Below are positions 985-29,813 of a stretch of 64,000 nt of DNA, one piece after another (the first letter of the stretch is position 1; each line of letters starts with the position of its first letter). This stretch comes from Marsupella aquatica. Lineage: Eukaryota > Plantae > Marchantiophyta. The notes beneath the pieces are model-generated. The model was not told the DNA's origin. It saw nothing but the letters and a program-made list of their open reading frames with translations, and searched no databases. Where the stretch lies: assembly GCA_973895155.1 (NCBI GenBank), contig OZ316894.1, forward strand, positions 13,759,580-13,823,579, written 5' to 3'. The position numbers and the translations under genes are program-made.

Positions 985-1408
985 GAGGTTTTTTGCCGTG
1001 ACAGGAAACAAGAAACAGTAACAGGAAACAGGAAATGGTAACAGTAAAATAAGTGAGGAAATTTACACAATATTTGTGACATCCATCAATAAAAATCCTG
1101 TATAAAAATGCTGAGTATGTTAGTAGCGCCTAGCGCTACTTTAAAATGTGTGTCACAGAATGTGTGTTACATGGTAGAAAAAACACAAAGCCGGACAACG
1201 ATACCTATTCTGCCTTCAAGCTCTAAAATCTTAAGAGATACCGCGAGCAGAAAAACGGCTAAAGAACTGGGATGTAGTAAGCTCGCAAGAAAACATGGAG
1301 AACTGACACTACAACCTAACACCTTCAATCTCCGATGGCGGTAGCATCGGGCACTACTATTGCAAAAGTTTTTAAGAAGACTCCATCTTTCCAACAATCT
1401 CAGGATGT

Positions 1409-2267
1409 TGTCCGAGTGACCGGTATATTATTGGCTCATTAGAAACCATAACAGCAGTTGCAAACTGAGCTCCAAAATGATAGGTTAGATGTTGCCTCAT
1501 AGATGGTTTGTCTAAAAGATGGACTCTAATCAAAAATGGATTACGAAGGGGAAGATCAGGGATAACTCTCTCTCCTGGATTCATGATGGCTCTCCTATTC
1601 CTTTGCTATCCGGGCCAAAGGACACTCCACCCCTATATTCCCAAAGAAACCTTATTCCCTAAGGTCCCATCTATAAGTCTACCACTCATTCCTTTGCTAT
1701 CCGGGCCAAAAGACGCCCCACTACTATGTTCAAGGCACAAAAGAGCTTCACAACCTTGAATGATAAACACTGCAGAATGAGGGGAGAGTGCCCCTCACCA
1801 CTTTATTTATAGTGCACACCAAGAGGGCATGGATCAAGCCCAAGCACTTGGATGAAGGCCAAGTGGCAAGCATCAAATACCTAAGAGTGTGCTATACTAT
1901 TCATAGTTGGTGAAACTACTTTTAGTAGGTGGAACTACCATGCATTGGTGGAACTACTGTGCGTTGGTGGACCTACTGTGCGTTGGTGGTCCTACTATGC
2001 GTTGGTGGACCTATTATGCGTTAGTGGACCTACTGTGCGTTGATAGAACTATTGTGCGTTGGTAGAACTACTCATATACATTGGTAGAACTGCTCATATG
2101 CATTGGTAGAACTACTCATATGCATTGGTGGAACTACTGTAGTCCGTTAATATAGCTAAAGAAGTTAATAAAGTCTAAATTTAATAATCTAACTACTAAA
2201 CTACTTATATAATCTATAACATATTAAAACAAACAATTTTTTTATAACTTAAGAAAAAATCACGACA
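1409..2267 (-). repeat. 3' LTR of Gypsy element 1, with an internal tandem array of about 19-21-bp units (TTGGTGGAACTACTGTGCG-like, about 1906-2141)
   Basis: Near-identical to 7404-7415 plus about 7740-8584. Begins TGTCCG and ends CACGACA. Purine-rich PPT-like tract on the minus strand at 2268-2285. Confidence 0.92.
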
Positions 2268-2389
2268 CATCACCCCTACCAAACCTGTGCATCCTCCTGT
2301 GTGCGCCACACCTAGAATCACTATATGTCTTCTTCATCTAAAGCCTCATAGTCGTCTGGTTCAAACTCTTCCTCTGTCATAAATCGAGT

Positions 2390-3760
2390 TCATCGTTTAA
2401 ACAATTTCACTCGCTTCCCTGCATAGGGATTGCGATGAATTGCTCCATCAAGTTCTCTTACCACATATGTTGCATTAGGATGAACCTCCTCCACCATAAA
2501 TGGTCCTCTCCAACGACGTGCAAACTTCTTCAGAGTAGAATGTTGCTGTTCCAACCCTCCCTCATAGATCAAGACCCAATCTTCATTTTGGATGGGAATT
2601 GGTCTCAAACGATGGGTCTTGTCAAACCGTTCTTTATTCTTCTCACGAGCCTCCTTTAGCCTTAGTAACGCCTCCTCAATCTTCTCCTTGGTCTGGCTAA
2701 AGTGCTCAATCCTTCGCTCCAGCAACTTTTCTCGGGAGATTCTATCTTGCCATTCAATCATCCTCCAACTCTGAACATTTTCCTCAATTGGCATCAAAGG
2801 CAAATGTCCAGAGACTAATTCGGCAGGCGTAATTCCTGTTGTGGTAGTGCATGCCATTCGATCTGCCAAAAGAGCAAACGGTAGAAGATTGGGCCAAAGC
2901 GATGGTTTTCCTCGGCAAGATTTCACCAAGGCATTCACAATTGGTGGGTGCCCTCGCTCAATCTTTCCATTCCCTTTTGGGTTGTAGGCAGTAGTAAGTT
3001 TGAGCTTGATGTTGAACCGGTCAAAAAATTCTGCAGCCTCTTCAGAATTCAACTCTCCTCTATCTACTCTCATTTGCACAAAACAACCATGACGTGCTAT
3101 AACGTCTTCAAGTATGAACCTGCATACTGCTTCTGTAGTGTTAGAGGTCAAAGCCCTTCCTTCAACATAGGAAGATAAATCTTCTCTTGCAAGGACAAGG
3201 TACTTTGCCCCCCTAATTCCTCATGGCATGTGCACCACATCTACTGCCCACTGAAAATATAAAGAAAGAGGACTAGTGGGATTAAGTCCATCTCTAAACC
3301 GAACTTTAGAGTAATATTGACAACTCTCACAAGATCCAACATAGGATTTTACATCCACATACATGTCTGACCACCAGTACCACCTTTGAACCCGCTCATA
3401 GGTAGCTCTAACTCCTCGATGTCCTGCTTCAACAGCATCATGAGAATCCCATAAGACTCTCTTCTTCTCTTCATCTGTATCAAGAACTCTACAAGAAATA
3501 TGTTCTTTCTTCAAAGACCTTCTCCATAAAACACCATCCTTTAGCATGAACTTGTAAGCCTTCTTCCGTAATTGTTGAAACTTCTCTTCTATCATTTCAA
3601 CAGGCCTTTGAAGAGTACTAAGGTACATTCCAATCAAGAGCAACTCTCCAGAATAGAGCTCCTCTTGAAATGTTAAGACCTCAAACTCTCCATTCATGAC
3701 TTGAACTGCCTCCACTTCATTTTGATCATAGCGGGCAATATGTGGTGACAAAGTTTGCAC
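2390..3760 (-). pseudogene. Gypsy integrase (zinc-binding region, core, GPY/F-like end)
   Basis: GHRGVRATYERVQRWYWW...CESCQ, WAVDVVHMP, VDRGE, TTAYNPKGNGKIERGH and RWRGPF, split by stop/frameshift lesions. Confidence 0.9.
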
Positions 3761-3769
3761 ATATTGCCT

Positions 3770-5504
3770 GAATAGAGGTCACCACATGAATAGATGGCTC
3801 TACCAGCAAATTCTTCCGCAAACTCATCTACTATAGGTCCTATTCCAGTATTGCGAATAGTAACTTTGTTAGGTGATTGCATGTCCTGAATAAATCTAAG
3901 TTTACCATTTTTTTTATGAATAGTAAACCAACGATTAGAATAAGGTGCATCTGCTCTTTCCAAAATCCTAGTGGAAAGCTTCTCCTTCAATAGATCAATA
4001 AGTTTAGGTAACAAAACCTTGGGCACTGGAATGGGTTTCAAGTCCCAAGGAACATGTGGAATAGTGAAAATTACCATAGGAATAACAACACTAGGATCCA
4101 CACATCCCATCTCTTTAGGACAAAAGGCAAAAGCCTTACCATGCTCACCAATCATTTGACGAAACTCCTCTCTCTCTTCTTTTGTCAACAACCCATCATC
4201 ACCAATCCTTAGTTGATTAAGGGTCTCCTTCGTGAATTTGTGGCCAATCTTAGTCCGATCTCTAAGACTGGTCTCTTTACTTGCCTTCTCCAAAATCTCC
4301 CTAGCATCCAAAGGTAAAGGAATTGCTGCTAGTCTCACTTTCTTTTCCACTGTTTTGTACTTGGTGTTGACCTCAACAAATTGAGACAACTCGCCATACA
4401 ACTCATGATTGATTTCCATATGAGCTTTCCCCTCTGAAAGGTCACCTTCAATTATTTCTTTCAAAGACACTTCTACTCCTTCTTCATCTAGAAGGCCTTC
4501 AATCTCTTCAATTTCCTCTAGCAATCCATGTATTTGCATAGTATCCTCAATCCTTGCAATTTTCTTTTTGAATTTTTTAGTAGCTTCACACACTTTCACA
4601 TAAGAAATTCGACAATGCAAGCTTTCACCTTCAAATGAGTCACCAGTGGGTCATTGGCGATGGCGCCCCGCCTTCCTGCATTGCTTAACGAGACGCCTTC
4701 CGGAAATCCTCATTTCCCTCCTTTGGGTTCAGGTCCTCTCAACTCCTTCCGATTCCTCCAATGTCCAGGTTTCACTACAGGAAATTGGATAACCCGCAAT
4801 TCATCCCGACTCCTTACCTTTGCCATATGAGTGTCATCTGGTAGGACCTTGTACTCCATTCGAGCTTGAGTAATGTAAGGCTGCTCTAGAATGAGATCAT
4901 AGGGCAAGCTATCATGCACAAAGATGTTAGTTGGTTCTATCACATGACCAACCTTCATTGATACTCCAGGGCATCCTCCCCAAAGCATATTCTTTGAACG
5001 ATTGATTGAGTTGACAGACCATTGAGTATCACAATCAATCATCCATTGCCCAAGATCATAGATGCTTCTTGACATTAGATTCACCTCAGATCCTGTGTCA
5101 ATTAATGCTCGAGATTTGACCTCCATTCCTACAAGCTCTACCTCCACAACTGAGCAAGTTCTTGCCCAAAACGGCTCCAAGATGGACTCCTTGTCGTCTC
5201 CTGAATCAGGATTCTTCATAGCTGAAGCACACATGACCCACACACTTTGTGAGGCCTTGAGCACCTCTTCACGACTAATTTTTGCCATATCCTGGGTCAC
5301 TGCAAATCCTGTTGTTGCTTTCACCAATGGTTTCCACCTCTCCAATACCTCAACTCCTGACATCTTTGGTTCAGGAACTTCCTTTGTTGAAGACCCTAGC
5401 ATCTGTGGTCTAGGGATCTTCTCCGCATTCACTTGATACACTTCACACTTCACACTCCACACTGGTTTGAGAAACAATTGAACCTTCTCCATCTTCATCA
5501 ACAT
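3770..5504 (-). pseudogene. Gypsy protease and N-terminal half of RT (RT C-terminus and RNase H deleted)
   Basis: ALIDTGSEVNLM (protease). PYSNRWFTIHKKNGKLRFIQDM...GDLYSG, followed by an abrupt jump near 3770 to the pre-integrase region. Confidence 0.85.
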
Positions 5505-7296
5505 CAGAAAAAACCTCTATTCCCAAGGCATGAGGTACTTCCTTGTAAAATCGTTTTCGTTTCACCTTTGCAAGTAATGCATCTTGAGCCTTGGAGTTCA
5601 TGCAAGCAAAAAACTCCTCATTGGTGACTCTGCTCACCTCCGCTTTCCAAAACTTCTCAGCAACTTGATCATACGCAATGTGCTGCTCAACATCTCTTCC
5701 AATGACCCAACTAGGTCCTTTCTTTTCCACCTTCTCTTTTTTTACCACTTCCATCTCCTTTGAGGATGAAGGAGTCGAAGTAGGCTCCTTTGTTGTACTT
5801 CCTCTATCTTCAAATCGAACACTCCTCCTTGTTGGGACTCTTGATGATGGTTGCAAAATAGAGGGTCCAGGCTCAACCTTTTGTTTTCTTTTGGCACGTT
5901 CTTCCAAAGGTTCCGACAACTTTTGTTTCTCCTCTACCATAGAATCCCATAGAGATCCCACTTCTGCAGTGAAAGAAGAGATCAACACTGGATCACTCCA
6001 ACCTGACTTCCTCCTTACAAACTCTGCTAGTCTCTTCTTGTCTGTCTCTGTTGACGAAGAACTCCCAAAGAGGGTGTAAACATCTGCTTCATGCTCATCC
6101 TGATCTCCAAAAGCTGTTGCAATGGCTGAAGTATGATGTTCAATCATTCTTCTCTCCACCAACACCTTCATACCGCCCTTATTTGTGTTTACTGGAATAA
6201 GCTCTACTGAATCATGATAAGCAAGCTTTCTTATGCCATCATGATCAATGAACTTGACTATTCTCTCTCTCAGAGCAACATAAAGCTCCCCACATTCATG
6301 CCTTGAGTGCTCCTTACTATCACACCAAATACAATTCCAACTCCTTGCTCCGCCAATGGAACTCCCGGCTCCTGGACCACCTCTTGACGCTAGTCTTGAT
6401 GTACCTCCTCCCATCTGCTCGAAGGCTTGGGTGGCAAGAATGGTAAGATTTTTCATGAGTTCAGACAACTCATCCATTTTGTCCATGCTTTTCTCACCCC
6501 TACCAGTTGTTGACTCTATTTTCTCCATTCTCCTCATAGAAGTCATAGGTGCAACCGCATCTAGAGCACCTTCATGACTCAACTTCTTTCTTCTATGCTT
6601 TTGGCTGACCCTAAGCACAACAATCTCAATCTCCTCCCAAGTTGGTGGACTGGCTCCACGACTTGGGTTCATCAATTCGAGAGCAAGCTCCAACTCGTCT
6701 TGAAGCTTCTCATCAGCAGCTCGGATAAGTAAAGTAGCCTTCTGTACCTTGATAACTTCAGAACCAATCTCAGGAAGCTGATTGAACTTCTTCGTAAACT
6801 CCCTTATCAGTTCTTGAGGTCCCAACTTCTTGCTTCTATTGGCCACTCAATCAAGGAAAGATGCTTGAGTAACCCGATCTGGATCTTCAAGCTAAAATTC
6901 TTCTTTCATCTTCAACTCAAAGACCTTCCATGCTTTCTCCCCAGTAGCTCCATCTATCAAGATAGTAACAATTCCCTTGAGTTCAGGTTCTACTAAAGAT
7001 ACAAACTCCTTGACTGCAACTTCTACATCAATCTTATGAATTGTAGCCTCCGTCCAGTACCCCTTGAGATACTTGGTTATATTTTGCCCATCAAATTCTC
7101 CTTGCTTGGTAAGAACCGAGTGTAGGTACTTTGTGGTCCTACCAAGCAACTCCTTCTTCTTGTTCTCCTCCATCTCCTTCTCCTTCATTCCATGTAAGTA
7201 AGCAGCAATCAAGGATGAAAACCTCTCCATGTCAGTTGGATTCATCTCAGTTCCCATGATTGCAATTCTTTCCTCTTGACTTAATAATATAAACAA
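5443..7296 (-). pseudogene. Gypsy gag
   Basis: GEFDGQNITKYLK motif and a CIWCDSKEHSRHEC zinc knuckle, broken into two ORFs, located just after the PBS. Confidence 0.8.
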
Positions 7297-7381
7297 GTTA
7301 AGAACTCAAAGTTCCAAAACCATATCTCTCTCCATCCATTAGAACTCAAACATGCACAAGCTAACTTCCAAATCCAGTGGT

Positions 7382-7399
7382 TCCCCAGTATGGTCGCCA
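7382..7399 (-). promoter_or_regulatory. Primer-binding site (TGGCGACCATACTGGGGA, tRNA-Arg-like)
   Basis: Starts with TGG, 4 nt inside the 5' LTR boundary at 7404. The tRNA assignment is from recalled plant tRNA 3' ends and is tentative. Confidence 0.7.
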
Positions 7400-7403
7400 C
7401 TTA

Positions 7404-8584
7404 TGTCCGGGTGACTGTGTTTTCTGGCAAGAGCATGTTGGCTCTTTTGAAATTAACCTTGCATGCTCATAAGTTCTACACTAAAATCAAAATGATAATT
7501 CTAGTAACAAGGGTAGTGGGTATTAAGAAAGGTTCAGGTGAAACTAAAATACTGTTAAACCTTACTTCACCATACTTGCGGACCAACACATCACAAAAAT
7601 TAGTTTTCTTACGATATATGATCCTAATATCTCCAAGAGAAAATGAAATAGGAATATCATCCGGACTCCTATTCAGATCCATGACTTCAATAAAGGACAA
7701 AGATGATGCACTCCCACTTCTCTCAGTACGACACCACTGGGTATATTATTGGCTCGTTAGAAATCATAACAGCAATTGCAAACTGAGCTCCAAAATGATA
7801 GGTTAGATGTTGCCTCATAGATGGTTTGTCTAAAAGATGGACTCTAATCAAAAACGGATTACGAAGGGGAAGATCAGGGATAACTCTCTCTCTTGGATTC
7901 ATGATGGCTCTCCTATTCCTTTGCTATCCGGGCCAAAGGATGCCCCACCCCTATATTCCCAAAGAAACCTTATTTCCTAAGGTCCCATCTATAAGTCTAC
8001 CACTCATTCCTTTGCTATCCGGGCCAAAAGACGCCCCACTACTATGTTCAAGGCACAAAAGAGCTTCACAACCTTGAATGATAAACACTGCAGAATGAGG
8101 GGAGAGTGCCCCTCACCACTTTATTTATAGTGCACACCAAGAGGGCATGGATCAAGCCCAAGCACTTGGATGAAGGCCAAGTGGCAAGCATCAAATACCT
8201 AAGAGTGTGCTATACTGTTCATAGTTGGTGAAACTACTTTTAGTAGGTGGAACTACCATGCATTGGTGGAACTACTGTGCGTTGGTGGACCTACTGTGCG
8301 TTGGTGGACCTACTGTGCGTTGGTGGACCTATTATGCGTTAGTGGACCTACTGTGCGTTGGTAGAACTATTGTGTGTTGGTAGAACTACTCATATATATT
8401 GGTAGAACTGCTCATATGCATTGGTAGAACTACTCATATGCATTGGTGGAACTACTGTAGTTCGTTAATATAGCTAAAGAAGTTAATAAAGTCTAAATTT
8501 AATAATCTAACTACTAAACTACTTATATAATCTATAACATATTAAAACAAACTATTTTTTATAACTTAAGAGAAAATCACGACA
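7404..8584 (-). repeat. 5' LTR of Gypsy element 1, with about 320 bp (about 7416-7739) absent from the 3' LTR
   Basis: Direct repeat of 1409-2267 apart from the extra segment. Confidence 0.9.
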
Positions 8585-8588
8585 ACGT

Positions 8589-9050: not shown

Positions 9051-9452
9051 GGTCTCTGGATCAATGTCTATGCGGCGCTAAATGCGAAAGAGCTCCTGGA
9101 AATCCTCAAACATTGGCGATGTCAAACGGAGAGGGTGTGAAATAGAAGAGGGTGTCGAAATGCCTACCGTTGCGAAGGAATTCAACCTAGGGAAACAGGT
9201 ACACATGGTAGTCAAGGTCATAAAGGATTTTCATCGTACATCAGTCCATGTACTTGCATTTTGGAAAACATTACACTACACTTGACATCAGAGAAAGATA
9301 TGCGGAAGCTAATGCCTTTCCCACTTTGTATTTATCTAAAATTGATGCGTACAATAAGTAGTGCCCGGCGCTACTATTTTGGAGGAGGTAATTTGTTTTA
9401 AAATCATGAATATATAACTAATCTAATTTAAACTAACCCAATCCAATCTAAT

Positions 9453-12400
9453 CTATTCTCCAGATTCTGACTCACTACTCTCTGATCTATCCGTACTCTC
9501 TGCTTCATCGTCGATAAATTCATTTCGTGCCATATCATCGACAAATGGATGACGGATGAACTTTCTATCCAAACCACGTCTCAATCGTAAGCCCTTATTC
9601 TCCCAGGTCAGGGTTCTTCTACTCTCTTCTTTGCGAGCGGCATACTCTGCGTGTGAAGGCAATACAAATGGTTTCTCAGGGGTAATTAGGACTTTGCTCA
9701 AAAATTTCCTTCGCAGATTGAACCTCTCGCGAAGATTCCACTCTGACCTGCGAGTCAGTTGAAACACTAAGTACACTTCGAGAGAACCAGTAATTCAAGT
9801 ATACAAGATAAAAAGAAAACGGAAAGTTAAGTAATGTAAAGGAGCTTACAGGCATTACTCAGAAGAATCTGCTTCTTCCGTTTCTCCTTCTAAATGCCCC
9901 CCATCCTTTTTCTCTCCTTCTTTATGGACATCAATCCCGGCCTCTTCATCAGCTACATCGTCTTCTTCTTCTTCAGAATCAAAATTGAGAACAGATCGAA
10001 CTTTATCTTTCACTTTTTTCTCCATGTCTTTGCTCGGACCAGCCTCACTCGATTCTTTCGGGAGGAGCAAGTCAGTGTATGTCCTCTCAGCAATAGAAAC
10101 AAATTCCTTTCGATTCTCAATCCCAAGGATGAAACGGCCACAAAAATCCCCAGCCACAAATGTACTTCCTGACCCAACCGTCCAGTCCATAATAATATCT
10201 CCCGGATGAGAGATTAACTCCAGGACAGACTGCATGAAGCCAACCGGTAGTCGTGCATTCCCTGCAAATGCAACTTCTGGAACATGATCCTTCTTCAGAG
10301 TCTGCAGTCCAATGAGGTTTGTGATTGAAGGGTCCTCGGTTGAAGACAAAGGCTTGAACTTTGAATCTTTGGGGACCCTAACCTTTGATGTAACTCGACT
10401 AAAGATATCAAGTTTTAAGGTGAAAACCTGGAAAATAAATAGTATTCAATATGAGATTTGGTCACATATATTAATAGCGCCAAGCGCTAGCAAATGATTC
10501 TCTTTATTCAAAAGGACAATTACCTGACAATCGCTTTTGGTCATGTACATTGGGGCATCCATAACAACGTTGAGTGTTTTGAGGCACTGGAACTTCTGGG
10601 AATCTTGGCTGGCCAAAATTACTTGGGAGATCTGGTCATACTCCCCAGTGTGCAAAACTGCTAACAACCCACGTCGGCAAGAAATGGGTCCATTGCCCTA
10701 AAGAAAGAGCCAATCATTCGGTGATCCGGTACATTCCACTTTGGTGATTTTCGGTGAAGCAAAGAAGGTCGTAGACCTGTCGGTAGGTAGACGAAACCCG
10801 CATCCACCCCAAAAGATCTCAACTTGCCTCCCCTAACTACCCCTTTCTCCCGGAGACCAAGTGTCACTAAGTCTTTTCCCCACTTCTCGACATTCGTCAC
10901 CCACTTGGGTTTAGTCTCTTTTGTAAAAACAGATTCAAAAAAGTCCATTAGACTGGAGTCAACAAACATATGACGGCAAACTTTAGACTTGAATTGACCA
11001 ACTTCTCGTTGGACGCCTGTACATGCATACAATTCTCTAGAAGAAGAACCGAGATCAAGATTTTTCTTCTTCTTTTTTTTGTTGCTTGTGGCATCAACCG
11101 GACGATCAACGTTGGTATTTGCAGGAGGAGTCTGCTCTTGGGTAGCATCAGCAGCCTCAATGTTTGCTTCAGATTGATCAGGGGTAATGGTCGTCTTTGC
11201 ATCTTGAGTTTCTTCTCCCTCTGATTTCCTTCCCCCTGAAGAGAATCGAAAAGGTAAGAACACTGGGAAAACTATAACAGCGCCCGGCGCTAGCCAAACA
11301 TTTACTTTCTAAATTCTTGTTTATGAGTATACATTTAATAGTTAAAAGTAGCAAACTTACTCAATGCAAACATAGATTTAATAGTTAATCAAACTTTGCT
11401 TTTAACTATTAAATCAATGCAAACAACTAAGTGAATTTCAGAGGAAAAGATCAAGAAGAACTGCAAAAAGTCATATAACTTACGTTTTCTTCCGGATCTC
11501 GTGGACGGGCTATTCAATCCTGTATCAACTTTTACTTTTGCGCGAGGTTTTCGGCTCCTGTCAACATGTAAGACTTCAGTCTCACATATTTTTTGAAGCT
11601 CCACTCCAGAAGCTTCAACGTCTCCCACCAATCCTTCCTTCATTTCAGACAACCATTTCCGAGGAACTAAAGATTTGGACAATTTCAAAAAGGCATCTTT
11701 CTCAGATTCATCAAAAGGTGTATCCCACTTATCAGTATCGAGGTACCAGGGATAGTTTGTTCGCTCCCAAACAGAAATGTCACGTGGAGGATTGGCTCAT
11801 TCTGCAGGATACATCGAGTAAACCTCACTGAAATCATCCCCATCCATGACCGACCACCTCTGGAACATAGGAGGATAAGCCCAGAAATATTCAGGAGAAT
11901 TGCTCTCCATGGACAAGAAGAACCAATAAAGGTATCTCTTTGCCCGTTTCTGGTTTCGGGAAGAAAAATCTTCTTTCTCCCCATACTTTGACGCCCACAT
12001 TGTGTTAAAAAACTTCGCCTTGATTGTATCTCCGTAACTTTTGAAATCATTGCAAATCATCTGCACTAAAGCATCAAAAGTTTCTACACCTCCTGTGATA
12101 AGTCGTTCCGGAGGCATGACAGATTGAACTTGTCTAAGAGCAGTCTGCAACATCCCCATTGAAATTCCTTCGATCCAACTCCACATGTGCCAAGTGTGAC
12201 ACCATTGTTTAACAGGTTCGTCGTTCACACTTGGCGGATGGAAAAATTGCTTGCAAAGTTCGGGCATGCAATGCGCCACAAGAAGAGTGGAACGCAACTT
12301 TGGGTCCAAAGCTAAGACGGCAGTAAAGAGACGAGCATGATCCATCGTGCAAACCACAGCGTCTGCTTTTTGTTCTCGCTTGTTTTTCTCTGTCAGCGTG

Positions 12401-13462
12401 TACATTTCCGCACATGTTGACAGAAAATCTTTGAATTCGGGGCTAAGGAGTGGAGTGATCTTTGAGGTCTTCACGCTCCATTCTTTTGTGGCCTCCTTCA
12501 TCATTGCGGCATGACGCTTGGTGACCTCCTCCTTTGACCACGGCCTCCCTTGAGTGTTTGCAGTCGCCATGTCCAGTTTGAATTGCACAGAGTATGATTT
12601 GATCTTGTTCTCGCACAAGATGTACACAAGGGCCTCCAAAGGCATCTTCTTCGTATACCAAGAGCCTTTCCTTGTCTTTGCGCGAATTGCCTCAAAGCGT
12701 TTGAAGTTTCCGGCATCAATTATTGTCTTGTAATAATCAAGGTCATGGGACAGAATCCGACTAATTCTATCAGCATCGAGGATCCACGACGGTTCTACAA
12801 TGTCTTGCCCCAATCTGTATACAACCATAATTCATTAGCGCCATACGCTAACCAAAATCTCACAATGGAAAATTCGTCCAAATCAAAGAAAATGACCAAA
12901 CTTACTGATTGACACTGTGCATGGCGGCTTCAATCTCAATAAGAGAACCTCAATCTCCCTTGAACATAGTGCATAGCACACGAGGGTGGTACTTGATATT
13001 TTCGGGGTTCTCTTTTGTTACCTGCGACCAGGAATACAGACGATGATTCCCATCAAACACACAAAACATCTTATCTTTTAAGACAAGGAAATCTGGATCT
13101 GCTTCACAGTCCGCTTCAAATTTATCATTCCAGACAGCATCCCAACTCTCGCGGATTTTGGGGGTACAAAATTGGATGACGCCTTCAGAATCAACGGGTT
13201 GCACGTAGAATCGCATCCCAATGGAGGAGTTGTAACTGGAACTACGAAATGATTCTTTAAGCTTCTCGATTGAAGCACTCTCCTTCTAGAGAGTCCGCAC
13301 AACTTCCATATTGACCAGGCGACAAAGCGGTATACGCGGAGGGTCCTTGGACTTACCTCTAAAATCAGTGCCGAACGACATTGCATGTTTGGCAATCACA
13401 TCTCCCATCGCTAGCGACCCTTCACACCCGTCCTCCATGATGAAATCACTCAAATTCTCCAT
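9453..13462 (-). pseudogene. Spliced ParB-like domain plus beta-class N4-cytosine/N6-adenine DNA methyltransferase-like fusion gene (MULE cargo)
   Basis: Approximate exons 13462-12906, 12814-11484, about 11235-10524, 10427 to about 9851, and about 9747-9453, with GT-AG junctions. N-terminus IPLCRLV..VRTL..IEKLKESF...FYV...VFDGNHRLYSW...AAMHSVN is ParB/Srx-like. C-terminus has VDAGFVYLPTG (motif IV position), FLA(D)DGLLAVLH, and LPVGFMQSVLELISHPGDIIMDWTVGSGSTFVAGDFCGRFILGIE (motifs X, I, II). Stops and frameshifts present. Confidence 0.75.
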
Positions 13463-14046: not shown

Positions 14047-14330
14047 TAGCGCGCGGCACTATCATAAACATCACTCCTTCTAGACCAAAAAGTATACATA
14101 TTTTCTGGTGATTCGACCATAAAATACAAGCAATACGCTGAGTTTCTATAATAGCGCCCGACGCTATTATTGATTGTTGTAGAATCTCTTGTTTTTTTGT
14201 TTTCCGCAATAATAGCGCCAGGCGCTATCAATGTAGAGTATCAAATAAAGTCACGTTTTCAGAATTTTGATTTAAAATTTCACGCTTTTGAACGACGATC
14301 TGGTAGGGTTTTTGCTAGCGCTTGGCGCTA
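14047..14330. promoter_or_regulatory. Cluster of four TAGCGC-N3-GCGCTA palindromes in the divergent intergenic region
   Basis: Copies at 14047, 14152, 14213 and 14316, between the ATG at 13462 (-) and the ATG at 14548 (+). Confidence 0.7.
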
Positions 14331-15057
14331 TTATTCTTCGTTGTGAAAATATCCGTTAAATTAACGGAAACATTTTGTTTTCAATGGTCATCCGGCGCCA
14401 TTTATCTCAAATTTATACGTTGAGTGAATGGTAAAAATCTAAATATTTTGTGCGTTTGTGTGTGGTTTCTTCGTTCTTGATGATTTACTTGAGGGAAATA
14501 ATAAACCCAGGCTAGAAACACCCTTACCATTTTGCCATTCTGTCAGAATGTCACGGGTTATTAGGGTAAAATGTCCTCAAACAGGAGATGTGATTAGCGT
14601 TCCTGTGACTAACGGAGATGGTAATCAGCGTGTTAGTGAAGATTATCTTTGTGGAAGGTTTGATGTTAGGAGGAAAGACATTGAAAGCTTAGGGACAGAT
14701 GCCGAGGAGGTAGTGAATTCTTTTTACATTTTTGGTCAAAAATGGTGGGAACTGCACTGCGGTGTCGAGTACGCGCTTTTCCTCCGAGGAAAAGTAGTGA
14801 AACTAGAGATGGGGGATGCACCAACAGAGGTCATTGACCTCACGTCTGATGGTGATGACTCTTTCCCTGTCTCTCAATTTCCAATGCATCAATGTAGTAC
14901 CTCAACGGAAGATAGTGGAGGTGACAAGCTTCTTAAATCTCCTTCTCTTCCTATAGTTTATAGAAGGAGTGCGTTAGACGCTCTTTTGAAATTGACTGGT
15001 CAAAGTGAGCTATCTCGATTTGTAAGATCAGAGACTTTCAAGCACGAGCAAGTAGAA

Positions 15058-17121: not shown

Positions 17122-17138
17122 TACTGTCGTACAAAAGT

Positions 17139-20100: not shown

Positions 20101-22319
20101 AGTTGGCTAAGGTGCTTACCCGAGGTAGCCGTCGCCTCCTCTTTCCTATCAGCATCTCCTTGAGTTGTTGCCGATACTTCGGGTTATCCTGTAATAGTTG
20201 TTCGACAGTGGTTGTAGCTGCACAGTTCTGAACATCCTTTTTGATGTCGTATTGGTTAGACGGTGGGGTCGCAGATTTTAATGCTTCTGCTTCCTTGACT
20301 TCAGCTTGCAAGGCAGTCTCAGCTTCCTCGGCTTCTTCTGCTGCCTTTGCATCGGCAATATCCTTCTTAATGGCTTTTTCGTGCTCTTGGGCCTCGTAGG
20401 CTTCCAATTGCTTTTTGACCAGTTCCTCTACTCGCGGGTAAAATAGCTTCGGGTTATCCCGTTGGTAGTCTTCTAGCTCGTCGGGTTCCATTGGAACATT
20501 CTTATTCGGGACCGCCTCTTTCTGCTGGGCATCCTTCCGAACTCGTTCTTTGTACTTGTCTTTCTTGCAGGATGACCGAGTAGAAATGCGATAGCACTCA
20601 TCGTCCGCGTGTGTTCCCGTTTGCTCAACTACTTCTATGAGGTCAATCCACTCGGTGGAGTCGTCCTGCCATTCCATTGTTACCATTTGTACTACTGCAT
20701 CCGTAATTGGTGGGGCCGCAGGTTGAGCAGCTCTGACGGCACCGGCCTTCGCGGCTAGCACCAAGGGGCAATTTGACGTGGAATGTGCTTCGGTTCGACA
20801 GACCTGGCACAATGGAAGCGCTCTCCCATCCCCTTGCTTCCGTTGCTCCGTGCACTCTCGGGCAAAGTGACCAGGTTTCTCGCAATTATAGCAAACTGGG
20901 GTCCGCCAAACTCCGGGTTTAGGTGGGATACTTGGATTGCTGACCATCTGGGGGCCACGCCCATTCACCGGGTATGGATAAGGGGTATGGAACCCTGGAT
21001 TATGGCCGCTTAGAGTGCGAGGTCCCGTCATACTCATCTAGAACACCGCCTCACCTGGATCCTCGAAGAAGTACTCCATCGTGCATTCCTCTGGCTCGGA
21101 CTGTCCGGGCTCCAACTCTATCTGGTGCACACAAGTATTCCATCTTGGACATTCTTGCACCACATGTCCCGACTGATAACACTTGGAGCACCAAGCATGT
21201 GCTCGGATTTCCGGTGGTTTCTTCTTGTCCGGAGGTTTTTCCGCCAAGTGCACCGATAGTGCCTTCAGCCGGTCTGTGATTTCGTTTAGCTTTTCTACCT
21301 CAGCCGCCTTTGGGTCCGCGGTGACGACTTTGGCTCGCGGTTTATGTTTACCCGCATCTGACCGTGATCCCTTCTTTCTTCGGTGGTTACGAGACTCTGA
21401 CACGGTCTCGCTGGAGGATGAGCCAGTTGTCGTTGGGCTACTAGACAAGGAATCACTAGACTCTGAATCAGAGTCTGACGAAGAGCTTGCCCGACCCTTC
21501 TTCTTATGGCATCATTTCTTCTTCCTTTTTTTCTCGTCGTACTCAGAGTCGGAGTCGCTGAAGGTATGATACCTCCTGCTCTTCGTATGCTTGGTCCTCC
21601 TATTAAGCTGAGAGGCGTAGTGCGATTCCCTGAAGGATTCGGCACTATCAATTGCTTGTTGCAGAGTGGTGGTCTTCTTTTCTAGTACCGAGAATGCCAT
21701 CCTCTGGGGTAGCGCGTTGACCAACCCAATTCCTCAGCAGAGAGTCATCTGGCTTAGGTCGAATCTTGGCGGCAACCTTCTGGAATCGCTGCAGAAATTT
21801 GCGAAGTGAGTCATGCTTACCCATTTGCATTTGTCCGATTTTTGACAGGGCCCGAGATTCGATCCCGACGGGCTGAAACTCTTGTAAGAACGCCGTTTGG
21901 AACTGGCCCCATGTGAAACCCGAGGGTTGTAAGTTATACCACGGGTGCGCTTCTCCTCGTAGCACGCCTGGAAGAATGGTTAGCTTAATGGCTTCCTCAC
22001 CATTTGCCTTGGTCGTGGCCTCGAACTTAGCTATCCATTCATCAGGGTCGTCCGTGGGTCGTCCCTTAAAGGGTCGATAAGTAAACCGGGATCGCTGAGA
22101 CACGTTCTGAGCCGCAGGGGGCCGCAACGCACCTGGTACCTGCGGGGCTGGTGGAACCGGTGGAGTTCCTCCCGCCATTGGTGCTTGGGTACCCATCACA
22201 ACACGCGATCCTGCTTGGGAAGCCGAGCTCCCCGCTTCGCCGGATGCGGTATTCTCTTCCAACCTTGATGCTCCGTCCGGTTGTTGTAAATACGCAGAAC
22301 GTGATCGGGTAAGGGGCAT
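20100..22319 (-). pseudogene. gag of element 2 with three CCHC zinc knuckles
   Basis: PFKGRPTDDPDEWIAKFE capsid-like motif; knuckles CSKCYQSGHVVQEC, CYNCEKPGHFAREC and CQVCRTEAHSTSNC; frameshifts present. Confidence 0.85.
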
Positions 22320-22397
22320 GCCCCTTCCTACACGTCGAGTACAAAATCAAAAGTTACTAGCTCACTACACGGCTCCACTCGTAAGGAAAAATGAATG

Positions 22398-22416
22398 CCC
22401 CCTTCATCTAGCGCCA
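22398..22416 (-). promoter_or_regulatory. Primer-binding site (TGGCGCTAGATGAAGGGGG, tRNA-Asn-like)
   Basis: Lies between the 5' LTR and the gag ATG, 17 nt from the LTR edge. The tRNA assignment is tentative. Confidence 0.6.
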
Positions 22417-22433
22417 AAAAACCGGTCGCCGTA

Positions 22434-25400
22434 TGTCGCGCCGCTAACCTGGGCCTTAAATCCAGTTTAGTGCCATGGTGCGACCTCGACCACCAGTAAG
22501 GGTGAGGGTTCGGGCAAGGAGGTGTGTAGTGACCTCAATTAGCCCTAAGTCGGGCTAAGTCAATATACTTACCTGTATAACACCTGAATAATTCGTACTA
22601 GTCATAGGTATATTTGTTTTCCACCGCTGGAATATTCCCTCAATTAGTGACTCGGACTAACTCCCGGCTTGGGGCCTTTCAAGCCATCGACACGACAGGA
22701 CCTTGTGACATACAATGAGTGGCAATCCCTACCATTAGTCCGCACCCGGTACGTCCCTTAAAATGGTGCCTTTACCCAGACAAAGCATACACACAACACC
22801 AGTTACTTGCAGAAACATTAGGGGGAAAAGACTACATTTACTCAGCGAAGCATCAGTTTACATGGTTGACTCGACTTCAAAGGGGGTCAGCAGGCCCAAC
22901 GGCAGTCAATGCCCAGTCTCTACGAGGCCCTGCCTCGCACTTGCCCAACAAGCTCGACTCTGGCTCTCACTCCTTGGTGCACTCTGACCCTGCTCAGGCC
23001 GGGACTCCCCGTGCCTCACCTTCCCTCTGCTGAGATAACTAAGCCTTCTCCCCTTCCTCGGCGGAAGGGGAAGCCTAAATACTACAATCGCGGAGGAGAG
23101 CCGGAGGATACTGCCTTCCGGGATACTACCTACTGACTAACTACCTACTGACTACTAGCCGCGCCGCACTGACTGGTTGACCGTCGATGACAAGGTGCCG
23201 ACCGGAATGGCAACGGCCAAGCCTACTGACTAATTCTAGTCCGTTGATGGACTCCATCCTACGTTGGCGGATCCTAACTGATCCGGCCCTAATTCTTCTT
23301 ACTGCCGCTAATCGGTGCCTAATGACAGTCATTCTGTCGTTACGCCTAACCAAAAGATGCCGTTGACTTAACTGCCTCGCACGGCGCCTACTTCCACCCT
23401 TCGCTAACCACCCCTTACGTGTGTGCAGTGGTTGGACCAAGGCTGGTCCCCTTGTCGGGACGAGACCTCGAGCCGCCTTGATCAGAGGTGGGCCCAGGTT
23501 TTCCCCGTTGGAGGCTGAGCAAGGTAATGCGGTCCTGCAAGGCCTTGTTGTCCCGTACCGCCTCCTCCGCCTCATTTGCAGCTTCATCGACCTCGGTTTG
23601 GAGCCGCGCTACCTCCAGATTGAGCTGGTTGATGGAGTTGCGATGGATCTGGTCCTGTGCTAGCAATTTATCTCGTTCGGCGGAGAGACTAGCCACCTGC
23701 TGTGCTGCCTGCACGAATTGTTTGTTGAGGTCGGTCAGGCTGGTAACCCGAGCCGAAGATTCTGAGCGTAATTGAAGCACGGTGTCATCCAGCTTCTTGA
23801 GTTCGACCTGCGCTCCGCTTAACTCCTGGTTTAGTCCATCCCTCTGTTCGACGGTGCGGACTAACTCCTCGCGTCGGGTTGTTGCCTCCTCCTCGAGGTG
23901 CTCTACCAACATCTGGAGGCGCCCGATCTCATTCCCCTTCGCCATGAGTTCTTCTTCCAGGCGGCTTACGATCCGTGGTTGGTGCTCTAACATGAAGAAG
24001 GCTGGTTGAAAGTACGCCAAGACTTGTTGTCTGATGTACGTCGCCAGCTCCCCAGACATAGTCTGGCTAAACTTCTGGACCAGATCGTAGGCCATGGTCC
24101 CCGGGGCTACTTGGTAGTCCTCCATCCTCTCGGGTACCGGTGGTTCCTCGGCAGGGGCAATGAGCTCCTCCGTAGTCAGCGCTGGGGAGGGGAAGGTATC
24201 TTCAGGTGGTGGAGGGATTGGGGGTGGTTGTACTGCGGGTAGCGGAGGCTCGACGGAAGGGGGCGGCAGAATTTCCACAGGGGGCGGTGGCGGAGTATGA
24301 GTCGGGGCTTCCAGCTCGGGGTTTGCCCGAGGGACGATAGTCCATGTAGTCGGGGTTGCCTCCTCTGGGGCGGGGGTGACATTACCCGGGGCTGAGGTGG
24401 CCATATTCTTTCCTCTGGCCTCCCGCCGTGCCTTGTACCAGGAGAAGGATAATGGCGATATGACTTCCCAAGTAAGTCTTCCCCCCAATAGCCATACCAC
24501 CCTGAGCCCACTTCAGCTCCCCCGAGAATCTTTGGTAGAAGAATTGGGCCCAGTTTCATCGTTTGTACTGTTCCACCTGCACGATCGTGCAGAGGGAAAT
24601 CTCGGATCGTGGCTCAATCATGTGTAGGGTAGTCCGTATGAAGTTAAGCTGCTCCATACAGGTTAAGTTGGTGCACGCCCCCTGCTTGTATCCGTTGTCC
24701 GTCTTACCCTCGGGTTTGAAGTGCCGTGGCGTATACTCCTTATCCCAAATTCGGATTTCCACCGGCACCGGCTCGGTTGGTAGGCAGAAGATTTGCGTTA
24801 ACCGATGCTCCATGAGTGATAAGGCCTACCCCGAAACCTTGGTGGTCGACGCGTCAGTGTCGAAATTGGAGATGAACTCACAAATCTCCTTCGGCCCGGT
24901 GGCGCACGGCCTCCATAGCAAGTGGGCGAACCGCTCCAACTGATGCTCCTTGAGATAGTCCGCATGTTCGAGTTTCTTGATCGCGATCCAGACTACTTCA
25001 GGGACGCGGATTACCTGTAATAAGTTGGACTTCGGGTTATCCGGAGGCCGTCGGGTCTGGTTGGTCAAGGGGTTTGCCGGGGCAGGTGCAGGCGCGGCGT
25101 CGGTCCGTGTTGATTTGGGGGCCGTCGTAGTCCTTGGCCGCTTACAAGGACGCTGTTCGAGTTGCGGACTAGCTCGCTCGGAACCCGAAGAACACTCCGT
25201 ATTGATTACTGGACGGACTTGGGACTGGTTCGGCGGTACTCTGGTGGTCATCGGTTGAGGCGCTGGTGGTATCGGGGTAGCCATATCCCAGTTGAAGGCG
25301 TTGGAGCTTTCCCCGAGGAACGTAAGATTACGCGCCGCTTCCCGTTGTCTGCTGATGTCTTCCTGGCGCTTTTCGGCTGCAATCTGCTGGTCTAGGTACC

Positions 25401-26282
25401 CCGGAATCTTGTCGAACTCCGCTTGAGTAAGCTGCTGGTTGCCCTTCAGCTTAAAGAACTTCGCTGGAACCTCAAGAATCGCCTCAGCTACCGATCTAAG
25501 CCCTTCCTTGCTGAGATATAGTTCGGTGATGTAGTCTCGCAGCTCGTTGTAGCTGGAATCCCTGGTGATGGCTGTCCTTTCGCAATTAACCAGTGCTACC
25601 TTGGTCACCAGCCTCGCGTATCTTCGTTCGTAAGCGGCTTTCTCGGGGCAAGAGTACCAGTAAGTCTCAGAGAACTTAGCACCTACCTCGCCAAATAAGG
25701 TCCAAAATCCCAAGGCTATGAGGGTCATACTAACCTCGTAGTCCGGTTCGTTGAGTCCGCGTTCCCACCCGGCTGGTCCTCTATCTCGTGGAGGCCTCGC
25801 TCATCCTGACTAAATCTCGCCACATTCCGCTCTTCTCCCTCGATAATCTCCTTGTAAAGGTCGACTCGATTCGATCAGCAGGGCGAGTGGGTGGCAACGT
25901 CCACGAATTCAAAGAAAGGTAGACATGAGCAAATGGCCCGCAGCGCCATCGGCTCCTCTCTTATGGAGGTGCCAGGATGAGCCCGAGCGTGAGAAGGCCA
26001 GGGCGTTTTGGGCATTGATAGCGAGCTGAAGTCGGCGCCTCGGTCCAAGCGTGATTCTTCTAACTGATTTTTACTCCGCTGCCGCCACCGTACCTCGGTT
26101 GCGCGTAATAATCCCCTTCCTTAACTCGTAATGATTCGATCATCTTAACCTACTCCTAATCTAATCATAATGGCAACAGACGGCTATACGTGCTATTCTA
26201 CACTATGGCTACGGTTCTAATGACCATATAAGTCCTAATCTACGACCTGGGTTCGGTCAAGTAACACGTTACCCGTGTCACA
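22434..26282 (-). repeat. 5' LTR of element 2 (3.85 kb)
   Basis: Bounded by the TSD-adjacent CA at 26282 and by TGTCGCG at 22434, which matches the element end at 15058. PBS is adjacent. Confidence 0.82.
23415..25728 (-). pseudogene. LTR-encoded accessory ORF of about 770 aa (plant-retroelement accessory-ORF-like domain, Pro-rich linker, coiled coil)
   Basis: ORFs 24826-25728, 24556-24813 and 23415-24500 join through two in-frame stops and one frameshift that is absent in the 3' LTR copy (HIAIILAWYKARR). Motifs EICEFISNF...TKVSG...IFCLP and NWAQFFYQRF. Confidence 0.7.
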
Positions 26283-29200
26283 TAGAATTTCTTCCCAAAA
26301 CTTACAACGGCAATGTCATATTTGAGCTTCCGCCTGTCGATTGTGTGGGTTCAAGGGGAAGCGTCTCCTTAACATGGACCGTTCGAAGGATTGCTATCTC
26401 TGGACTCGAATTCTTCCTACTTCTGCGAATGTTTTGCCGAAGAAGATGCGGGAGTTTGGTAAAGTCAGCTGTAGCGGATCACTTGAATGCCGAAACAAAT
26501 CATGCGAGTTTTATACCAGAACAAATGGTAGGAATTGTAGCTCCTGGGAAGGGACCCCCAAGTTGGGAGGCCAACATTGTCCAGGAAAGTTGATTGATTC
26601 AGGAGGGATTGTTTGTCGATATTGTCTTCAACTTCCGTTCTGTTTGGACTCCTGTTCCGCAAAAATGTTTTACATGTACCCACAAGTTCTCCTGGATTTG
26701 GCGACAACGCAGCATATGTTACGCCTTGCAGTGCATATGGGTGTCCATAACCATCCGTGTCAAAAGGTCTGGTCGAGAAGTTTGGAGATGATAGCTGTCG
26801 AAGAGATTCGGAAAGAGCATTTGAAGAATCCTTCTTCCTCGCCTAGTGTTTTGAAAAATGCAATCACTGGATCTCTTAAGGATGCACTAGATGAATCTAT
26901 CGATGACATCTCGAAGATGGAAGAGAGTGAGATTTGGCAATCACTTATGCTTGTTTCGACTCCACAGAAGTTCTCTGCCTTGTTTAAGAGTGTCCGGAAA
27001 GATCAGGCCGGGCGAGGAGACCTTGAATATCTGGTTCGGATGCAGAAGAATGTCAGGTTCCCTTTTGTTCAAAGGTATCTCCTTCCAGGGCAAGGCTCTA
27101 AGGAGGACCAAGCTCATATTTTCAAAATGACGATCAAAGGGCATGGATCCGAAGTAGATTTGTTGCGACAGATGAAAAAGGGTGGACCCCTCGAAGGTGC
27201 GTGGGTGAGTTTTGATGTCATGAAACGAATGTCGAAAGATTGGAGTACTTTTAGCGCCCATGTTTATGACCATAACTATCGAGCTTTATGTACAATATTT
27301 ACGTGTGAGCTGAAAGCGGAGGACACTGAATCTCTCGAGAAAGCATGGAGATTAATGATCGAGGTCGCTTTAGAAAATGGGGTAGATGATGTTCAAATTC
27401 ATGGATTCATGGCTGATAATGCTCAGTCGGGGTGGCGTGCAGTTAGAAACGTTTTCTTTGGGGGCCATCCAAATCCGGAGAAAGAGAGATCGGATGCTTT
27501 TCATTTTTACCAATCTTTGCACCGCCATTCTATCGAAGGAGTGCTTGAAGACAAACGTTCTGAGCATTGCCTCCTCTGGGATAAGCTCATAAATGCATCA
27601 ACCTTTGTCGAAGCTTATAGGATTTCCCGAGAAATTGATTTGTGGTGGAGATCTGGAAATTGCATTCCCGGGAAGCTTCGGATGCTGCATGGATGGATCT
27701 CTTGGTGGGTTGTAAGATGGCGGCAGTGGGGAAATTTTATTCGACTTGTAAGTACCACCATTTTTTCACTTACTGAATAGACACTTCCATACTAGCGCCT
27801 GGCGCTATTATTAACACCTTCTTTTTCTTGATGATCTCAGCGTTTTGGTTAGCGCCTGGCGCTACCTTTAATTCATACATATTGTTGAAGAATATCAACA
27901 TAACTTCCAAATGTAGATTTTGAGATTTGACGAACTCTGGCCGTCCTACAGAGCAAAAGTGCACAAGAAGGAGGGATGATTCCTAATTGCACTGGATCTG
28001 AGGCAGTTCATGGTATCATGAAAGCTTGGCAAGGGAAGAAAACTGTCGGATTATTCGAGGGTTGTAAAATTGACCACAATCGTGCAATCTCTCAAATTGC
28101 TGCTTATACTGCCTATCGGGATGGGTTACATAGAGGAACAGGTCCTACGGTATTTGAACTAGCTTTCCGTTCAGTAGACCTGGCTGGATCCCCTTGATTG
28201 TTCGAAGAGGCTTCTAATTTGCCACTAGCTAATGCGGCAGAATTTGATTTGGAAAGAAGTACTCCATTGAACGGTGATTTTGTAACCAAATCTGTCAAAA
28301 GAAAAGGTCCAGCGACAGGGAATGTCTCGGCACAAGACTCCCATCGTCATGACACCATTCTGATAACAACACCGAATACACGGGGTATGAAACAGAGAAA
28401 TCTGAACTCGACTCAGTTTTCTCATATTCCACCAAGTGTTCCTGAGACACCAATCGATTTGACTGGGAGTGAGGGCCCGAGTGACATGCCGGACGCATCT
28501 GCTTCTGGTCCAGGTGTAGAATCTTCCTTATTACCAGAAGTCTCTTTGGACCAAATTCCAGTCCTCCCTGACACGTCGCTTTTGGAGTTGGACGTTGAAC
28601 CTAGGTCTTGGCATCTTCATCGAATTTCAAGACTTGGGCCTGGTCCTCAATGTAACGGGACATTGTCAAGTAGATGCGATCGTGATGAGTGTCGAAACCG
28701 GATTAAGAAGGTTGGATATCCTTCTAATGCTGGTGTGATCAGAATTGTTGCGAAGGGACATCGCCTGTTCAGGAGTGAACCTCATGCCGAGTTCGTGTGG
28801 TTTTGCCCCAATCACAGTTGTTGGAAAAGCCGCCCACGTCGAGGCATTGCTAACCTGCCTCCTTATCCAGTTTCCTTGCCAGTACTAAAAGGAACACATT
28901 TGTTAAACTTGGAGTTACGTTTCCTGGAAGAACAGGGTGTTGCAATCTCCAGACAACACCACCAAAGCATGTCTGCCAACCCTACGCCTTTTGACTTGAG
29001 AATCAATATTGATGTTTTTCCTGAGAAGATCAATATGGCACAAATCAACATCCGTGTTCGAACTAGGAATGGGCGCCCAATGAACCCCAGATCAAATCTT
29101 ACTCAGGAATACCATAGAAGGATCGAATTTGCTGCGAAGGAAACAATGACTCTTATCACAGAATTGGATGTTTCCTCGGGGAACTCATATGGGAAACGAT

Positions 29201-29813
29201 TACTCATCCAAACATACGCTCATCTAAGGACGGCAAACACTTATTGGGTGCAGATTTGCGTATTCCCTTGTTGCTCTTGTGAGGACTTCTTTCGCCAGCA
29301 TTCTCGAGGAAGACCTTTCATGCCTTGTAAACATTTGTACTGGGTTTACAAAACAATCTTCAAGCTTGATCCGTTGGATTTGGTCTTACCAAGCCAGCCA
29401 ATTTTGACTGTTGGAGAACTCCAGTACATCATAGGAAGGAGGAATTCGCATGGTTTAGAGTAATTCTTAGCAGTCTACTAGACGTTGAACGGGAAGTTTT
29501 GGGTTGCCATTTTTAACGGTAACAAACATTTTGTTAGCGCTCGGCGCTAGTAAAAGGCGGGCATTTTGGAATGTTGTTTTATCTGGCAACAAGTATTTGG
29601 GTAGCGCTCGGCGCTAGTAAAAGGGACTTCCAATATTGTTGTATTCAGCCCTAAAAATATTGGAGTTCCGATTGAACTTGCTCTCCTTTTTGTCCAGAAT
29701 TATGTCATGTTTTGTTGATGATAGTAGGTAATCTCCTGTTTTGTTGCACTCTTTTTCCTGTTATGAGCATTACTGTTTCCTGTTTCCTGTCAGGAGGTTG
29801 GGCCCGCCAATCC

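Follow-up and report, generated by a model that had tools for sequence, protein, structure and literature searches.

Palindromic sites throughout the non-coding DNA of a liverwort Mutator-like transposon, candidate targets of its ParB-fold passenger protein

The transposon and its palindromes

We analysed a 64,000-nucleotide stretch of the genome of the liverwort Marsupella aquatica (assembly GCA_973895155.1, contig OZ316894.1, positions 13,759,580 to 13,823,579; called the window below), in which a Mutator-like DNA transposon carries thirteen copies of a 15-bp palindrome, TAGCGC-N3-GCGCTA. The transposon contains two head-to-head genes, one for a transposase and one for a passenger (cargo) protein with a predicted ParB-type fold and a methylase-like domain. 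It is bracketed by an 8-bp target duplication (GCCAATCC, at 977-984 and 29806-29813) and was inserted into the reverse-transcriptase region of an older retrotransposon. An imperfect terminal inverted repeat was found at 999-1021 and 29770-29792 (96%). A short repeat, AACAG(G/A/T)AA, from which this inverted repeat is built, is concentrated there, with 7 of the 8 copies in the element's own DNA lying within ~60 bp of an end, and the AACAG word crowds the ends of both related elements. Both genes are broken and two long terminal repeat (LTR) retrotransposons have landed inside the element, so the window copy is dead. The main features are as follows; introns were inferred from GT-AG ends and alignment with homologs.

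985..29805: Mutator-like DNA transposon, 10.4 kb of its own DNA without the two nested retrotransposons
1014..1047, plus strand: left short terminal repeats AACAG(G/A/T)AA, candidate transposase sites
29755..29792, minus strand: right short terminal repeats AACAG(G/A/T)AA
9855..13462, minus strand: cargo gene, inferred exons 13462-12906, 12814-11484, 11235-10524 and 10427-9855
9453..9770, minus strand: tail reading frame, 31% identical over 71 residues to the Riccia cargo model P0124 (pairwise E 5e-5)
14548..29463, plus strand: transposase gene, exons 14548-15057, 26283-27747 and 27952-29463, split by retrotransposon 2
1422..8584, minus strand: nested LTR retrotransposon 1, left edge good to about 10 bp either way, LTRs 97.8% alike or 2.1% apart in two comparisons, no palindrome
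15058..26282, minus strand: nested LTR retrotransposon 2, target duplication TAGAA, LTRs 2.5% apart, no palindrome

A preliminary description of this DNA had listed thirteen palindrome starts, all of which proved to be real. Eight copies are exact (1124, 10475, 14213, 14316, 27793, 27850, 29535 and 29602), while in 100 shuffles the mean was 0.00 and the largest number 0; five more have one mismatch (9359, 11278, 12836, 14047 and 14152). When up to two mismatches were allowed, the window yielded 16 matches, compared with a mean of 0.60 in shuffles. The additional copies, at 57534 (one mismatch), 57556 and 63930 (two mismatches each), lie in two related elements. The palindromes had been described as confined to the non-coding DNA of the transposon: the non-coding position stands for 13/13, and the confinement does not, given these three copies.

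1124..1138: palindrome 1, exact copy at the left end
9359..9373: palindrome 2, downstream of the cargo gene, a single mismatch (CpG transition)
10475..10489: palindrome 3, exact copy in cargo intron 3 (10428-10523)
11278..11292: palindrome 4, cargo intron 2 (11236-11483), first base C
12836..12850: palindrome 5, copy with one mismatch in cargo intron 1 (12815-12905)
14047..14330: palindromes 6-9 (14047, 14152, 14213, 14316), 1,085-bp region between the head-to-head genes
27793..27864: palindromes 10-11 (27793, 27850), inferred transposase intron 27748-27951
29535..29616: palindromes 12-13 (29535, 29602), right end, within a 67-bp tandem duplication (77% alike)
57399..57732: non-autonomous relative of 334 bp, inside a CACTA transposase gene, palindromes at 57534 and 57556
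63711..64000, plus strand: left terminus of a third relative; each of its repeated units includes a half-site or a degenerate one (63878, 63930)

None of the thirteen palindromes falls in an inferred exon. The probability of such placement was 2e-8 to 2e-6, the range reflecting a non-coding share of between 25% (two doubtful frames taken as coding) and 36% in the 10,428 bases that belong to the element itself. Palindromes are present in all four introns and in 8 of the 9 non-coding compartments, and for 10 of the 13 the nearer end is over 1 kb away, with a maximum of 4.7 kb in an element of 10.4 kb. With 0-1 mismatch, no copy was found in the two nested LTR retrotransposons (18 kb) or in the host stretch at 29.8-54 kb (24 kb, including the SF3B1 gene), bearing out the statement that exons and nested retrotransposons lack full copies. 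A three-mismatch look-alike at 1342, inside a decayed reading frame, may be due to chance, as there are 10 such matches per 64 kb. The flanks of the palindromes have 26-36% GC, in agreement with their description as CpG-rich sites in AT-rich surroundings.

Alignment of 14 sites (28 half-sites) gave WWTRN-YAGCGCY as the half-site read toward the centre, longer than the motif first described, and a full-site consensus of 25 bases, WWTRN-YAGCGCYNRGCGCTR-NYAWW. The arms had been called conserved and the spacer variable; the 3-nt spacer is in fact constrained (Y-N-R at 12/14 sites) and the site extends outward. Position -2 was a purine and position -4 was W, each in 28/28 half-sites. Six departures from TAGCGC were found, all of them unpaired transitions. 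C is tolerated as the first base, most related copies reading C at 27850.

Positions -2 and +2 are Watson-Crick complementary across the centre at only 5 of the 14 sites. Each half thus seems to have been kept on its own, which points to reading by a protein, as dimer half-sites, and not to a hairpin; the pattern of a dimeric protein site had been proposed earlier and gains support here. The palindromes might instead be RNA hairpins or DNA cruciforms, or neutral leftovers of local duplication. The six-base GC-rich arms with their 3-base loop can fold, the neighbours 27793/27850 and 29535/29602 have spacers and flanks in common, and close copies show no extra conservation. However, no arm change is compensated, the -2 purine is invariant yet rarely paired, and the same word recurs kilobases apart in unrelated contexts, in the ends and the promoter region and not in introns alone. 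We therefore regard this explanation as very improbable.

The family is large and diverse, with 508, 1,074 and 1,528 cargo-side contigs in sequencing runs X1-X3 and 102 in run X5, many of them less than 95% alike. At 14058 all four sequencing runs have G, at full depth, so the mismatch at this position is private decay of the window copy. In some related copies a further palindrome is present between 11352 and 11411; the window has an inverted duplication at 11316-11431 in cargo intron 2, where those copies have the additional palindrome. Some diverged contigs keep a palindrome amid unrelated flanks (contig joints at 80% likeness call for caution), and a contig of organism C (record 25) matched the transposase intron at two palindromes only. 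The 334-bp relative has its own 8-bp target duplication, CTGCCCAG, and its GAGGT left end and AACAG repeats are common to it and the main element. The repeated units of the third relative look as if palindromes multiply by local duplication.

Encoded proteins and comparable systems

The cargo protein consists of a ParB-fold domain, a helical region, a linker and a circularly permuted N6/N4 methylase-like domain. The window copy is broken by several stops and a frameshift. For exon 1, 118 relatives were found among 1.84 billion representatives; window exons 2-4 are matched in alignment by full-length Riccia sorocarpa models (e.g. P0122, 1,207 residues), and fern proteins could be aligned too. 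All the named homologs found come from Riccia and Adiantum, the named relatives being from a liverwort and two ferns. The tail reading frame, which follows the cargo stop, is similar to the final exon in some of the Riccia models and by this likeness hints at an alternative last exon. No cargo relatives were found among viral contigs, and prokaryote genomes also held no related loci. Of 42 metagenome-contig candidates, 4 were related loci, all shorter than 2 kb, and a word search with exon 2 alone gave no longer relative. A scan of viral contigs for the paired-site pattern gave 0 matches. Two paired-site matches in one actinobacterial genome were rejected as GC-rich repeats in an unrelated context, and a single viral-contig match to the full 25-base consensus, with no similarity to the window or its proteins, was taken as chance.

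We modelled the structure of the Riccia homolog P0042 on 138 sequences (mean pLDDT 76, confident over residues 152-556). Among 48,161 solved chains the best match was KorB (Z 8.0, root-mean-square deviation (rmsd) 2.6, 95 residues), followed by PadC, Pnob8 ParB-N, SerK, sulfiredoxin (Srx) and SbnI; the top six are all of the ParB/Srx fold. A second structural comparison gave ParB and Noc at Z 9.2-8.1 with a whole-chain rmsd of 7-9. The Z scores are middling, but the one-fold list and the DGNHR motif agree, and a ParB/Srx-type fold of the N-terminal domain is supported by the model. Whole-chain matches of P0042 reach the ParB DNA-binding part at rmsd 7-9, and 6s6h, at Z 4.7, is at noise level. 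A search of the PDB with the cargo sequence profile found nothing.

The nucleotide motif reads DGNHR and gave a weak profile match to DGQHR proteins (5/30 members, best E 0.001), not to canonical ParB; DndB and DUF1015 were further weak profile matches. The GxxR motif is kept (G in 117/123 and R in 106/120 alignment rows), as is the Box III asparagine (96/102), which makes nucleotide binding by the cargo likely on sequence grounds. The choice of nucleotide is not predictable from sequence, according to the accessible part of PMC12704722. No ParA-like family was found among the element's reading frames in a Pfam scan. The parS analogy of the preliminary description therefore falls in the partition sense: the cargo is at most ParB-like in action and the palindromes are not parS partition sites, CTP use and spreading being analogies only. 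Residues 160-700 of P0122 gave a weak Atlas look-alike to DUF3723 (0.82), a lead only. DUF3723 proteins are accessory genes of fungal Starship elements, and we found no paper joining DUF3723 and ParB.

In the C-terminal part, Pfam N6_N4_Mtase (PF01555) matched the cargo at E 5.6e-9, with a DpnA match too, and PHROG methylases matched down to E 2e-8. N6_N4_Mtase was the only Pfam family found in full-length relatives. Motif I, for binding of S-adenosylmethionine (SAM), is intact in the window copy (DWTVGSGST). Motif IV of N6A/N4C methylases is given as [DNSH]PP[YFW], with a base-stacking aromatic residue (PMC4738411, as far as available). This aromatic is lost in 21 of the 22 motif-bearing relatives, which read D/N-h-P-T/S/I-G (a single Riccia genome supplied 20 of the 22), and the window copy reads YLPTG. 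Only the fern protein P0116 keeps it (DVPFG). Because of this loss, catalysis appears doubtful in most of the family, and so does local N4-methylcytosine or N6-methyladenine. The earlier label of a ParB-methyltransferase thus holds for the ParB-type fold with its conserved GxxR and Box III residues, and is weakened for the methylase part. Marchantia DN4MT1 was considered as a counterpart and set aside: it has TSPPY, and the accessible text of its paper mentions neither ParB nor a transposase.

The transposase gene carries frameshifts and stops; D-D-E motifs were seen. We take its N-terminal zinc-binding region to be GCM-like and its C-terminal finger to be of the SWIM type. It has 19 homologs at 39-62%, one of them named, from the liverwort Calypogeia fissa, and no relatives among viral contigs. 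The first Atlas match of the homolog P0152 was to clusters of Mutator-like elements (MULEs; 0.94). No Pfam transposase family matched any of 20 transposase rows, the window transposase was also without a Pfam match, and its sequence profile found nothing in the PDB. Hallmarks of the MULE superfamily are long terminal inverted repeats and target duplications of 9-11 bp, whereas here the duplications are 8 bp in both elements and the inverted repeats are short and imperfect.

Comparable passengers are known from algae. In Ectocarpus, Sola1-1_Ec32 has an accessory protein of ~1,100 residues, with ParB-like and N4/N6 methylase domains, on the strand opposite to the transposase; it was proposed to bind and modify its own element (accessible part of PMC12477816). 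The likeness lies in a single protein with both domains opposite the transposase. Sola1-1_Ec32 belongs to a brown alga and has a Sola transposase, whereas our element is Mutator-like and from a land plant, each of its introns has a site, and the catalytic motif of its cargo is eroded; the main text of PMC12477816, as available, does not contain the word 'palindrom'. In the Plavaka elements of Bostrychia, the ParB-like accessory protein PAG3 was described with inverted repeats proposed as its sites and VANC as a model (bioRxiv 10.1101/2025.02.11.637652, available part). There, ParB is fused to a 2-oxoglutarate (2OG) oxygenase, the methylase is a separate gene and the repeats form tandem arrays beside the gene, whereas here ParB and the methylase-like domain share one protein and single sites are spread across the element. 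Both algal systems were compared with the cargo by description. ParB-methylase passengers and nearby inverted repeats in brown and red algal transposons are thus already in print, and in the accessible parts of these sources self-binding was proposed and never put to test. For a land-plant family with element-wide single sites and an eroded methylase we found no published account; supplements and subscription papers may hold one.

The VANC/VANDAL system also combines a Mutator-like element with an accessory gene, and its motifs lie in introns, intergenic DNA and terminal non-coding parts; they are family-specific, have been gained by tandem duplication and are used by non-autonomous elements (PMC5735166, for this and what follows on VANC, as far as accessible). 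The placement found here, in non-coding DNA for 13/13 and in 8/9 compartments, agrees with the earlier comparison to VANC motifs. The VANC motifs, by contrast, are non-palindromic, 8-9 bases long and arranged in tandem arrays, and the protein encoded here combines a methylase-like domain with a ParB fold. Of the two proteins, VANC alone has been proven to bind and demethylate; for the cargo both activities are predicted.

With the ParB-family regulators KorB, VirB, BisD, Noc and DndB the cargo has in common the ParB/Srx N-terminal fold and GxxR (structures 8qa8, 7bm8, 6sdk). As orphan proteins on mobile DNA, such regulators repress or unsilence genes from palindromes (PMC10770331, PMC4507180, in their accessible parts), and DndB, whose active-site word (DGQHR) comes nearest to that of the cargo, binds to palindromes within the promoter of its own gene (PMC4507180, accessible part). 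These proteins are prokaryotic and their helix-turn-helix and clamp are proven, whereas both are hypothetical in the cargo, and its site is odd-centred with another sequence. Phage fusions of ParB with an N6/N4 methylase have the same two domains in the same order (PMC12704722, in part; A0A0F6WDY6) and are the likely source of the cargo, which differs from them in its spliceosomal introns, in ~500 additional residues that separate the two domains and in having lost the motif IV aromatic.

Candidate readers of the palindromes and their role

At two distant loci, L002 and L003 (40% and 37% identical to the window exon), cargo intron 1 holds a different, imperfect palindrome ending TCGCCGAG.

L002 883-905 and 978-1000, L003 742-765: TCGCCGAG-type palindromes, cargo intron 1, distant subfamily

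This palindrome has 15/19 bases in common between otherwise unlike introns, which was reached by 1/200 shuffles, the length of the compared stretch having been picked after the match was seen. Read as 8-base arms around 3, the TCGCCGAG-type and window palindromes share a GCG/CGC core and an odd centre. As to the idea that the motif co-varies with cargo subfamily, 2 of 4 distant loci have a different palindrome in the same intron, and the short stretches of the other two have none.

We consider it moderately probable that the palindromes are family-specific targets to which the ParB-fold passenger protein binds as a dimer; in this way it would cover the entire element and regulate it. We infer that the passenger and not the transposase binds, that it does so as a dimer, and that a nucleotide acts as the switch. 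The passenger is preferred because most sites (10/13) are far from the ends, the ends have a repeat of their own, and ParB-fold regulators bind palindromes. Further reasons are the different palindrome at two of the four loci and the algal inverted repeats that stand beside ParB with an unrelated transposase.

Several results weigh against this assignment. Foldseek with the P0042 model ranked ParB and Noc first, with no match at E <=0.001. In an hhalign comparison with a profile of 26 bacterial ParB proteins, the helical region showed no similarity to the helix-turn-helix (score 10.0, shuffles 8.3-15.6), and the N-terminal domain was also missed; a likeness of the helical region to a ParB helix-turn-helix with an insertion, seen by eye, was dropped as this profile test gave no backing. 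At the closest locus, L001, no full site was found in 60 bp of intron 1 and ~420 bp upstream, and intron 1 of L004 has no such palindrome. In the transposase intron of close copies, variation was found at 4/24 arm and 11/133 other positions, with no extra conservation of the arms. On this short time scale that is expected if most copies are dead, yet it gives no support. The 334-bp non-autonomous relative keeps palindromes, as transposase sites would be kept, and for the AtMu1 transposase motif binding and a lowering of methylation were reported with no other protein needed (bioRxiv 2026.08.24.746577, available part).

The last two points bear on the main rival, the transposase. Sites for it along the element would aid the pairing of ends, or would let it switch on and demethylate its own family (compare AtMu1 and MURA). 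Non-autonomous and partial relatives hold palindromes within 135-220 bp of an end, and the cysteine-histidine N-terminal region of the transposase looks like a DNA-binding domain. For the AtMu1c transposase, binding to shared motifs and hypomethylation were reported without an accessory gene (bioRxiv 2026.08.24.746577, available part). Two of the four distant loci have no full palindrome in the short stretch examined, and the change of motif between subfamilies suits either protein. However, AtMu1 peaks at terminal repeats in the available part of that source, whereas here the distance to the nearer end exceeds 1 kb for 10/13 sites; the element ends are already crowded with a repeat of their own; and inverted repeats accompany ParB accessory genes in Plavaka elements, whose transposase is unrelated (accessible part of the PAG3 source). 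On balance we judge the transposase an unlikely reader.

The palindromes might also attract a DNA-binding protein of the host, through which the element stays expressed or unmethylated; the cargo would then be a bystander. Four palindromes lie in the common promoter region, and plant factors commonly recognise CG-rich words within AT-rich DNA. However, there is no site at 0-1 mismatch in the 24 kb of host sequence, and the different word in L002 and L003 is easier to reconcile with a rapidly changing reader encoded by the element than with an invariant factor of the host. We hold a host factor to be improbable.

If the passenger reads the palindromes, its dimer would load at those in the introns, at both ends and in the common promoter region. 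Once loaded it may hold off host cytosine methylation and so keep the element open, in the way of VANC in Arabidopsis and of the ParB-like VirB against H-NS, and the methylase-like domain would serve as a SAM- or base-binding module and not as an enzyme. The passenger might alternatively exert KorB- or DndB-like control of the two promoters. As the window copy is dead, any present use would be by protein supplied in trans. We favour anti-silencing over promoter control, by analogy with VANC and VirB and from a weak CpG signal only. The observed/expected CpG ratio of the element DNA is 0.72-0.80, compared with 0.27 and 0.17 in the host retrotransposon, 0.36 in nested retrotransposon 1 and 0.14 and 0.18 in the CACTA element, which fits a lineage that escaped CG methylation. 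Against this, nested retrotransposon 2 is equally CpG-rich (53% GC, CpG 0.87), the SF3B1 gene reaches 0.67, and 25 of the 52 differences between the LTRs of retrotransposon 2 are CpG transitions. CpG retention is thus not special to the element, and DNA inside the dead copy was methylated.

A sliding clamp would account for single intron sites 1-2 kb apart. In its fullest form, a phage-derived ParB clamp would load at intron palindromes, close on nucleotide, slide over exons and shield the element from cytosine methylation, the dead methylase acting as a reader of bases or SAM. We think this full scheme rather unlikely. If the clamp reading were true, many unrelated eukaryotic transposons would have adopted a portable, sequence-addressed anti-silencing module. 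The finding supplies an orderable 25-base site with a cognate protein family in liverworts and ferns. The second subfamily, with its different site, is a built-in specificity control, and the plants concerned are near the Marchantia toolkit. The use of ParB-type loaders by eukaryotic transposons against silencing becomes directly testable, and if it were confirmed, a new tool for targeted epigenome change would be at hand.

Neighbouring features

A decayed third reading frame of the element (minus strand, ~9113-8585 and 1412-1140) is split by retrotransposon 1 and perhaps ends at palindrome 1; the part scanned had no Pfam match. The right LTR of retrotransposon 2 seems to be ~3.8 kb long, of which only 2.07 kb were matched on the left.

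The CACTA element spans 54088-59700 (Transposase_21, DUF4218; CpG 0.14-0.18) and has a frame encoding NSD-like PHD fingers ahead of it. At 51820-52071 and 58626 a different palindrome of 26-27 bp (GTCATTTTGGAC-TTGTCCAAAATGAC type) occurs in 4-5 copies upstream of the CACTA genes. A second element with its own palindromic site may lie behind these repeats. The SF3B1 gene (43601-47602, minus strand) is a single open frame of 1,333 codons and is apparently intronless.

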